This document shows positions 24,519-24,851 of a stretch of 64,000 nucleotides of DNA, in pieces. The DNA comes from a phage. A program made the translations under genes and the position numbers. The stretch is taken from the NCBI GenBank assembly GCA_029945195.1, contig GCA_029945195.1_4117.1. One strand, written 5' to 3'. The notes under the pieces were generated by a model. The model worked only from the letters and a program-made list of their open reading frames with translations, searched no databases and was not told the DNA's origin. The first letter of the stretch is position 1; the number at the start of each line of letters is the position of its first letter.

Positions 24519-24851
24519 ATGCTAAATCTAAATATTCAAGGCAACGTTGATATCACTCCAGCAATCCAAGATGCTATTTACAATGAAGCAAAAAGTCTGG
24601 ATAAGTACCGTACTTCTTCAGTACTAGACATTGGTGTTCATGTTAAGAAAGAGCATAAAACTCAATATGCTGTAACTTTAACTGCTGGTAGTAAATCAGT
24701 AACTGCTGATGATGCTGATTTGTATAAAGCAATTGTTGAATCTTTTGATAAGATGGAAACTGTATTCAGTAAAGACAAAAGCATTAAATTACACCGCCGA
24801 AACCATCCAGAACACCCAGTTCTTGATGATTTGACAGAAAACGAAGAGTAA
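24519..24851 (+). CDS. hpf: Ribosome hibernation promoting factor / RaiA-like protein
   Basis: MLNLNIQGNVDITPAIQDAI...LDKY...YAVTLTAGSKSVTADDADLYKAIVESFDKME...KDKSIKLHRR aligns along its length with bacterial HPF/YfiA. Confidence 0.7.
   Translation: MLNLNIQGNVDITPAIQDAIYNEAKSLDKYRTSSVLDIGVHVKKEHKTQYAVTLTAGSKSVTADDADLYKAIVESFDKMETVFSKDKSIKLHRRNHPEHPVLDDLTENEE

Follow-up and report, generated by a model that had tools for sequence, protein, structure and literature searches.

A divergent HPF/RaiA-family protein with a RaiA-like tail encoded by Asteriusvirus jumbo phages

Does a hibernation factor carried by a phage silence the ribosomes of its host, protect them, or reactivate them? This question has been standing since Mizuno et al. 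in 2019 catalogued phage hibernation promoting factors (HPFs) in rV5-like phages and in the jumbo phage GAP32 (PMC6375957). The same question is raised by a small gene in the phage DNA analyzed here, a stretch of 64,000 nucleotides (hereafter, the window; GenBank assembly GCA_029945195.1, contig GCA_029945195.1_4117.1). An initial annotation of the window had proposed that this gene encodes a homologue of HPF/RaiA, and the open reading frame (ORF) was present exactly as described there (Table 1). The results of our analysis established that its product belongs to the HPF/YfiA (Ribosomal_S30AE) superfamily as a divergent member. A narrower assignment, to the orthologous group of RaiA or to that of short HPF, was not established.

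The evidence from profile hidden Markov models, pairwise comparison, predicted fold and sequence motifs agreed, and the proposed homology was borne out. In the profile search, which had been suggested as a check, the protein scored 41 bits against Pfam PF02482 (Ribosomal_S30AE, "sigma-54 modulation protein / S30EA"), above the gathering cut-off of 23.7 (E = 3.3e-10), and the match placed residues 5-87 on profile positions 2-84 of 88. The equivalog models of NCBIfam were not reached, and their scores are given below. In the PHROGs collection the protein has a family of its own, phrog_34864, to which no function is assigned, and the S30EA phrog was also matched weakly. By BLASTP, the protein was 28% identical to Escherichia coli HPF (E = 2e-7) and 25% identical to E. 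coli RaiA (E = 1e-5). The significant matches of a phmmer search against the sequences of the PDB were all hibernation factors, and the best of them was Thermus thermophilus HPF (E = 4.9e-7).

The structure was predicted with AlphaFold2 from 13 family members, and the model had a predicted local distance difference test (pLDDT) score of 75, that is, moderate confidence. The predicted fold was composed of beta1 (residues 2-8), alpha1 (14-30), beta2 (36-44), beta3 (50-56), beta4 (59-65) and alpha2 (68-86), and it was followed by a low-confidence tail from residue 88. When the model was compared with the PDB by Foldseek, the top 38 matches were all HPF, pY, YfiA, RaiA or related chains, either ribosome-bound or free, and the template modelling score (normalised to the target) reached 0.81. 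E. coli HPF in the 100S ribosome (6h4n_x) superposed on the model with a root-mean-square deviation of 1.7 A over 90 columns.

The 4.1 kb around the gene was 99.8% identical to Escherichia phage SP27 and 92-99% identical to 121Q, PBECO4, phAPEC6, Sharanji and further Asteriusvirus members, which are jumbo phages with genomes of about 350 kb, and the identical 110-residue protein was found in at least 11 phage records. A word-indexed protein search found only the close phage family, 14 relatives with 61-100% identity, and nearly all of their contigs have a size typical of jumbo phages. The alignment of this Asteriusvirus family showed an invariant motif, VHVKKEHKTQY, in beta2-beta3, an invariant ADLYKAI at the start of alpha2, and a conserved tail, KSIKLHRRNHP..DLTEDEE, of which the last two glutamates are invariant. 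Outgroups were reached only by an exhaustive profile search: among 1.84 billion representatives, just 63 proteins passed E <= 1e-3, and 6 passed E <= 1e-10. The nearest outgroups, P0016-P0019 and P0021, lie on metagenomic contigs that are as long as 351 kb. They are equivalent to the "ribosome-associated inhibitor" of three Salmonella phages (Munch, 7t3 and SE_PL) and of Klebsiella phage fENko-Kae01, and we call these the Munch-type proteins. The second-best profile match, the metagenomic protein P0015 (1605 residues), consists of an HPF fragment of 53-55 residues that is perfectly repeated in tandem about 29 times; it was ignored as almost certainly an assembly artefact.

The motifs that had been quoted in the initial annotation were also present, namely the N-terminal MLNLNIQGNVDIT, which is shifted by one residue relative to the canonical MQLNITGNNVEIT, the central L27-x-x-Y30, and D67-x-Y69-x-A71-I72 followed by D77-K78. 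Residues T13, A15, L27, E45, D67, Y69, A71, I72, K78 and K85 were common to the phage protein, E. coli HPF and RaiA. For a wider comparison, the phage proteins were aligned with 57 other HPFs, that is, E. coli HPF, RaiA and 55 matches of the profile search, a set that is biased toward sequences resembling the phage profile. The hallmark residues at the start of alpha1 (T-x-A; T13 and A15) and at the start of alpha2 (D-x-Y-x-A-I; D67, Y69, A71 and I72) were invariant in the phage family and were found in 41-57 of the 57 other HPFs.

Which type of HPF does the phage protein resemble? Long HPFs have a C-terminal dimerisation domain and about 180-190 residues (178-203 among our profile-search matches). 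The phage protein has no residue beyond 110, and disorder is predicted for the stretch 88-110, most of which has a pLDDT under 50. Short HPFs have about 95 residues and no tail beyond alpha2, and the phage protein with its tail does not correspond to this type, either. In contrast, the extension of about 20 residues past alpha2 that characterizes RaiA has a predicted counterpart in the 23-residue tail, of which the Arg-Arg pair is aligned with R95-R96 of RaiA and of which the terminus is acidic. The phage segment KLHRRNH aligns without gaps over GEARRAA of RaiA (HRRNH over ARRAA), and both proteins have acidic termini. In the Asteriusvirus family, R94, D104, E109 and E110 of the tail are invariant and K90 and R93 nearly so. 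The pattern of K/R-R, linker and acidic end was also found in many RaiA-type matches and in the Munch-type proteins, and it was absent from short HPF and from rV5 HPF. According to the model, the phage protein thus has a RaiA-like layout, in which a folded domain of about 87 residues is followed by a disordered tail of 23 residues.

Residues of HPF that touch the ribosome have been described in a cryo-EM preprint of 2025 (10.1101/2025.10.07.680626). The strictly conserved basic contacts of alpha2 are K80, R83, K87, K89 and K91, among which R83 contacts m4Cm1402 and is described as the single essential arginine; K26 and Q29 touch the backbone near m3U1498, H55 and E60 touch the C-terminus of uS9, and the beta2-beta3 loop is named as a contact region. 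In YfiA, the tail is directed to the pocket of RMF, and its R95-R96 contact both 16S rRNA and uS7 (10.1101/2025.10.07.680626). In our alignment, nine positions were basic in at least 60% of the 57 non-phage HPFs, and the Asteriusvirus family keeps four of the nine (29, 80, 87 and 89; Table 1). Furthermore, basic residues were preferentially invariant within the phage family (10 of 14, versus 27 of the 96 other residues; Fisher p = 0.004), and the invariant basic residues are concentrated in the hairpin of beta2-beta3, in beta4, in alpha2 and in the tail. The net charge of the core was -2, the same as that of E. coli HPF. From these alignments we infer that a polyanion-binding surface is maintained in this family but has been remodelled.

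E. coli RaiA (YfiA, protein Y; 113 residues) is close to the phage protein in length, and in both there is a disordered tail with Arg-Arg at the same distance from alpha2, acidic ends (..ENEE and ..EVEEE), a lysine of alpha2 at HPF position K80, and the D-x-Y-x-A-I motif. The phage protein differs from RaiA in its low identity, in lacking the basic residues of alpha1 and an equivalent of R83, and in its setting, since the phage gene sits in a lytic phage and RaiA in a stress regulon. E. coli short HPF (YhbH, 95 residues) has the same fold and, of the two host paralogues, the higher identity, and the equivalents of K80, K87 and K89 are kept; however, this HPF has no extended tail and forms 100S dimers with RMF, and its C-terminal contacts H95 and K93 have no phage counterpart. 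The N-terminal domain of T. thermophilus HPF (6gzx, 2ywq), the best sequence match among solved structures, shares with the phage protein DADLY-AI, the "ET" signature of alpha2 (RLETQV, compared with KMETVF in the phage protein) and Thr at the position of R83. T. thermophilus HPF is, however, a long HPF, which makes 100S ribosomes alone by its dimerisation domain, whereas the phage protein has only the 23-residue tail.

The HPFs catalogued earlier in phages can be compared in the same manner. Those of rV5-like phages (105 residues) and of Cronobacter phage GAP32 (111 residues) belong to the same Pfam family and to large lytic enterobacterial myoviruses, and GAP32, like the Asteriusviruses, is one of the broad group of Rak2-like jumbo phages. 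Tblastn did not retrieve the GAP32 copy, whether the query was the protein of the window (E <= 1e-3) or P0016 (E <= 0.01). The identity of the rV5 HPF to E. coli HPF is about 44%; its tail, GKKGKGKGKVKIDFGE, is rich in Gly and Lys, and the protein lies elsewhere in the tree. In contrast, the Asteriusvirus protein is far more divergent from the host proteins and has a RaiA-like tail. The Munch-type proteins occupy the same genomic position as the gene of the window and share the tail (K.L.KR ... acidic end) and Thr at R83, although they are only about 31% identical, keep the equivalents of K26 and K91, and have a different gene immediately upstream.

We consider the most likely mechanism to be a RaiA-like one, in which the protein would bind to the decoding channel of vacant host ribosomes, preserve 70S monomers and oppose the formation of 100S ribosomes; judged by analogy with known factors, this proposal has about an even chance of being correct. 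According to this proposal, a sigma-70-type promoter would drive transcription of the LysM-lysozyme gene and, downstream of it, the HPF-like gene, and the product of the latter would be a non-structural protein kept by the enterobacterial 121Q/Rak2-like jumbo phages. The protein would bind between the head and the body of vacant 30S or 70S ribosomes by means of alpha2 (K78, K85 and K87), the invariant beta2-beta3 hairpin "VHVKKEHK" and the tail, and idle ribosomes would be held as protected 70S monomers. The tail, directed at the RMF site, would compete with the 100S dimerisation driven by HPF and RMF of the host. The phage might benefit from a preserved and readily re-usable pool of ribosomes in stressed or slow-growing hosts. 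RaiA-like behaviour would be expected of the protein on the ribosome because there is no room in it for the dimerisation domain of long HPFs. The absence of this domain, together with the likeness of the tail to that of RaiA, which antagonises 100S formation, also makes it unlikely that the phage protein dimerises ribosomes by itself, one of the roles that the initial annotation had suggested beside silencing or protecting them. Mizuno et al. proposed that phage HPFs might compete with cellular HPF and in this way prevent ribosome dimerisation (PMC6375957).

Several results weigh against the RaiA-like mechanism. The phage protein scored 36.3 bits against the HPF/YfiA equivalog TIGR00741, under the cut-off of 40.9, and it remained far under the cut-offs of the RaiA model NF007654 (19.3 bits; cut-off 158) and the short-HPF model NF007780 (23.2 bits; cut-off 125). 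The phage protein was excluded from the enterobacterial RaiA clade of a neighbour-joining tree (bootstrap 96; E. coli RaiA and the profile-search matches P0064, P0025 and P0041), and because of this the resemblance of the tail to that of RaiA may be ancestral or convergent. Five of the nine conserved basic positions (17, 23, 26, 83 and 91) are lost in the phage family. R83, in particular, is replaced by Thr, the residue that is also found in T. thermophilus HPF, a ribosome binder. The pair that contacts uS9, H55/E60, is not conserved in the phage protein, and the mean net charge of alpha1 is -1.5 in the phage family versus +1.4 in the other HPFs. As for the promoter, its call rests on sigma-70 consensus matches, which are not enriched over shuffles in this AT-rich DNA. 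Finally, rV5 HPF in E. coli was absent from high-salt-washed 70S and 100S ribosomes, and the ribosome profiles were unchanged, a result that the authors regard as inconclusive (PMC6375957). That test used high-salt washes and ribosomes from growing cells, and the protein was of a different, more host-like lineage. A loss of ribosome binding is nevertheless made less probable by the Thr of T. thermophilus HPF, the charge of -2 of E. coli HPF, and the invariance of the basic residues.

The main rival reading of these results is that the protein may be neofunctionalised or a decoy, which has kept the HPF fold, lost productive binding to the decoding channel and come to bind some other partner. 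We regard this as possible but doubtful, and the partners that could be proposed for it, namely a different RNA, a hibernation or rescue factor of the host, or a host defence protein that senses the state of the ribosome, are as tentative. The lost contact positions, the acidic alpha1, the scores under the NCBIfam cut-offs and the failure to recover rV5 HPF on ribosomes (PMC6375957) would all be in line with such a change, and so would the invariant VHVKKEHKTQY, which is specific to the family and absent from canonical HPFs, and the isolation of the family in the exhaustive profile search. However, the three best-conserved lysines of alpha2 and the Arg-Arg pair of the tail are kept, and it is the basic residues that are preferentially invariant. 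Neither the charge of the core nor the Thr at R83 sets the phage protein apart, since the former is shared with E. coli HPF and T. thermophilus HPF binds in spite of the latter, and the rV5 test, with its high-salt washes and growing cells, was called inconclusive by its own authors. There is hardly any probability that the protein is no relative of HPF at all, being instead a dodecin-like flavin-binding protein or a regulator of sigma-54 or a sigma factor. The Pfam match to dodecin (PF07311; E = 0.0012) was weak and partial (19.5 bits, under the cut-off of 22.5; residues 12-55 only), and there was no dodecin among the Foldseek matches. Several GenBank records give "putative sigma 54" or "putative sigma factor", and we rejected these labels because the top 38 Foldseek matches were all of the HPF type. 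"Sigma-54 modulation protein" is a historical name of HPF, which came from the position of the gene beside rpoN, and the name is no evidence of sigma-factor activity.

A different question is whether the protein, if it binds ribosomes, would serve to shut off the host. A shut-off factor would be made early and abundantly and would block the A and P sites of free ribosomes, so that initiation of host translation is suppressed globally, and the phage mRNAs would escape by phage-encoded means; we think this quite improbable. It is true that RaiA and HPF are translation inhibitors which occupy the tRNA and mRNA sites, that the extended -10 promoter of sigma-70 type upstream of the operon suggests early transcription by the host polymerase, and that Asteriusviruses encode a homologue of IF3, reported in Sharanji, as an example of a means of escape (PMC11895373). 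However, factors of the HPF/RaiA type are restricted to vacant ribosomes and make no distinction among mRNAs, and translation of the phage would thus be blocked as well, and no mechanism of selectivity is evident in the sequence. Furthermore, a co-transcribed lysozyme gene would be an atypical partner for an early shut-off gene, and the evidence for the promoter is weak.

The history of the gene was considered from the tree and from comparison of genomes. In the neighbour-joining tree the Asteriusvirus family had a bootstrap value of 95, the wider grouping of jumbo-phage proteins with one extra sequence was weak (bootstrap 21-41), and E. coli HPF and rV5 HPF also lay away from the family; with bootstrap values of 21-41 at the deep branches, the origin of the phage gene is not assignable from this tree. 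The pairwise ratio of non-synonymous to synonymous substitution rates (dN/dS) was 0.13-0.25 in the pairs of lowest dS, similar to that of the neighbouring lysozyme gene. As judged from these substitutions, the HPF-like gene is under purifying selection, and its coding status is supported. The order lysozyme gene, HPF-like gene, terminator, variable small ORFs, CCA-adding enzyme and Nudix gene was found in 121Q, Turkey5, EJP2, UE-S1 and Munch, and Munch has one extra gene between the lysozyme gene and the HPF-like gene. In Erwinia phage Hallingskeid the HPF-like gene follows a lysozyme-sized gene, and no CCA or Nudix annotation was found within the examined stretch. Our comparisons indicate that the gene is an old resident of this phage group and no recent capture from E. 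coli. It therefore contrasts with the gene of rV5, whose HPF is much closer to that of the host.

Between the window and 121Q the flanks were 99-100% identical, and the patch that covers the folded domain (Table 1) was about 80-86% identical, with 18 amino-acid changes and a dN/dS of 0.15. Between the window and UE-S1 the HPF-like gene was 99.4% identical and the lysozyme gene 81.7%. The part that encodes the tail was identical in the window, 121Q and UE-S1. This pattern in the aligned genomes indicates that the folded-domain patch is exchanged as a cassette between phage lineages. In two Salmonella phages, SD-15_S21 (L009 1501-1725) and SD-1_S14 (L010 1499-1651), internal deletions of 108 and about 163 nucleotides, respectively, remove most of the fold. 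These deletions fall in the divergent patch, and the genomes are 20-40 kb shorter than those of related phages, with a lysozyme gene that is also fragmented. We did not use these deletions as a sign that the gene is dispensable, because an assembly artefact is at least as likely.

The signals for expression of the gene are collected in Table 1. The Shine-Dalgarno site AAGGAAGGTG is purine-rich and lies 4-5 nucleotides before the ATG. The terminator hairpin has an 11-bp GC-rich stem with a folding energy of -17.8 kcal/mol (z = -4.76; none of 200 shuffles folded equally well); it is also annotated in UE-S1 and, at the equivalent site, in Munch, and it is invariant in the SD phages. The product of the upstream gene matched Pfam Phage_lysozyme with 45 bits and LysM with 22.4 bits. 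Only 16 nucleotides, with no terminator between, separate the stop codon of this gene from the ATG of the HPF-like gene, and the same arrangement was found in 121Q, Turkey5, EJP2 and UE-S1. Because the spacing is so small, the two genes are probably co-transcribed up to the terminator, and we think that they form one transcription unit.

Table 1. Features of the HPF-like locus in the window, and state of the conserved basic positions of HPF in the Asteriusvirus family
Feature	Positions	Strand	Basis or state
HPF/RaiA-family (Ribosomal_S30AE) gene	24519-24851 (incl. stop)	+	ATG ORF, 110 residues
Shine-Dalgarno site AAGGAAGGTG	24505-24514	+	read from sequence; ribosome-binding site annotated at same place in UE-S1
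Intrinsic terminator, stem AAAGGGACAGA/TCTGTCCCTTT and T-rich tail	24860-24892 (hairpin 24860-24886)	+	folding versus shuffles
LysM + phage lysozyme gene	23576-24502	+	alternative start TTG 23543; directly upstream of HPF-like gene
Putative sigma-70-type promoter, extended -10 (TTGTAA-16 nt-TGcTATACT)	23432-23459	+	consensus scan
Invariant box GTAGAAAGTCC in operon 5' leader	23492-23502	+	alignment of leaders
Coding region of predicted C-terminal tail, residues 88-110, SIKLHRRNHPEHPVLDDLTENEE	24780-24848	+	predicted disordered; R93-R94 pair, then acidic end
Mosaic patch, ribosome-binding site and codons 1-78 (folded domain), 245 bp	24509-24752	+	pairwise genome comparison
HPF position 17 (R): H, Q or N			lost
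HPF position 23 (K): E, G or D			lost
HPF position 26 (K): variable			lost
HPF position 29 (Q in HPF, K in RaiA): K29			kept
HPF position 80 (K): K78			kept, invariant
HPF position 83 (R): T			lost
HPF position 87 (K): K85			kept, invariant
HPF position 89 (K): K87			kept, invariant
HPF position 91 (K): I or V			lost

The putative promoter lies about 115 nucleotides 5' of the start of the lysozyme gene. Its hexamers are kept or improved in related phages: UE-S1 has TTGACT ... TGcTATAAT, and the -10 of Turkey5 is also the consensus TATAAT. There are thus hints that the host polymerase transcribes the lysozyme/HPF-like operon, from which we can only infer the timing. The best sigma-70 consensus match of the region is a different one, TTGACA-17-TATACT (11/12), at 24831-24859; it sits in the last codons of the HPF-like gene, directly 5' of the terminator hairpin, so that transcription of the next gene from it would need read-through. 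In the leader, the box GTAGAAAGTCC was identical in the window, UE-S1, Turkey5, EJP2 and Hallingskeid, and its surroundings diverge. The idea that this box is a repeated regulatory motif of the phage was rejected, because the three other near-matches in the window lie inside ORFs and have no common context. The leader (23432-23575) also has a small hairpin, AAAGuCC/GGcUUUU. Support for a leader structure by RNAalifold was weak, and Rfam gave no match.

The initial annotation had also placed the gene in a block devoted to the takeover of translation, next to a CCA-adding enzyme and 2H, Nudix and macro genes. A CCA-adding enzyme is indeed encoded nearby, but it lies 1.6 kb downstream, beyond the terminator and five small ORFs, and in this respect the proposal was overstated. 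The immediate neighbours are the LysM-lysozyme gene and ORFs of no assigned function. Two of the assignments fell short of the Pfam gathering cut-offs, that of 2H (PF22547; 22997-23407) with 25.8 bits against 27 and that of macro (PF01661; 28903-29379) with 16.4 bits against 22; either may be a genuine but divergent member. In the surrounding 9 kb or so on each side, the assignable genes encode a thymidine kinase (by the annotation of UE-S1), the 2H-like ORF, the LysM-lysozyme, the HPF-like protein, two paralogous proteins of unknown function, the CCA-adding enzyme, a Nudix protein, a glutaredoxin, the macro-like ORF and a deoxynucleoside monophosphate kinase. Only two of the genes in the region, the HPF-like gene and that of the CCA-adding enzyme, are related to translation, and no tRNA gene was found in the window. 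The other ORFs there have no assignable function. From its gene content, the region resembles a mixture of auxiliary genes. The stable order of the HPF, CCA and Nudix genes reflects the general collinearity of these genomes; from phage to phage, the HPF-like gene and that of the CCA-adding enzyme are separated by differing numbers of small ORFs. The ORFs 25490-25906 and 25893-26315 overlap and are paralogous (43% identity over the C-terminal 54 residues, E = 3e-12), with the motif FIDDTFGID in common, and the similarity of ORF 24905-25300 was marginal (E = 0.01).

The gene and its HPF/RaiA annotation are already known, and phage HPFs were published in 2019. The name "HPF/RaiA family ribosome-associated protein" is given in the RefSeq records of 121Q and PBECO4 and in UE-S1, the phAPEC6 record has "ribosome-associated inhibitor A", and that of Turkey5 has "ribosome hibernation promoting factor". 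Other labels for the same gene are inconsistent; in addition to "putative sigma 54" and "putative sigma factor", of which the latter is wrong, there is "hypothetical protein", and where the search matched certain rV5-like records, the annotated feature bears the name "ATP-dependent protease La type I". The genome paper of Sharanji counts the protein among translation factors (PMC11895373). We found in the literature no functional study of a phage HPF beyond that of Mizuno et al., and recent Asteriusvirus papers did not mention the gene, nor were expression data for it found in them. The main text of the virion-proteome paper of phAPEC6, with part of its table of virion proteins, does not mention the orthologue gp292; according to the same text, the adjacent lysozyme gp293 was not detected in virions. 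On the basis of this main text we set aside the idea of a factor that is packaged in the virion and injected. What is new here is confined to refinements, namely that the tail is like that of RaiA, that canonical contacts are partly lost, and that the core domain is exchanged in a mosaic manner.

What would such a protein mean for the phage? Ribosomes of the 100S type dominate in stationary-phase cells. Instead of a hibernation factor, the phage protein could be an anti-hibernation or ribosome-guarding factor with a remodelled face for rRNA and a RaiA-like tail, which would occupy the HPF/RaiA site of idle host ribosomes, exclude RMF and HPF so that no 100S ribosomes form, shield the decoding centre from host nucleases or from defence toxins aimed at ribosomes, and dissociate more easily than the factors of the host; we hold this to be unlikely. 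If it is true, however, the phage would translate efficiently in stationary-phase or stressed cells, and the cassette exchange of the folded domain would be a tuning to the ribosomes or factors of different hosts. Phage factors that bind ribosomes show how viruses manage the translation machinery of the host. The Asteriusvirus protein, which is conserved, under purifying selection and encoded by easily cultured coliphages, offers a practical test case, above all in infected stationary-phase cells, for the question of what phage HPFs do to ribosomes.

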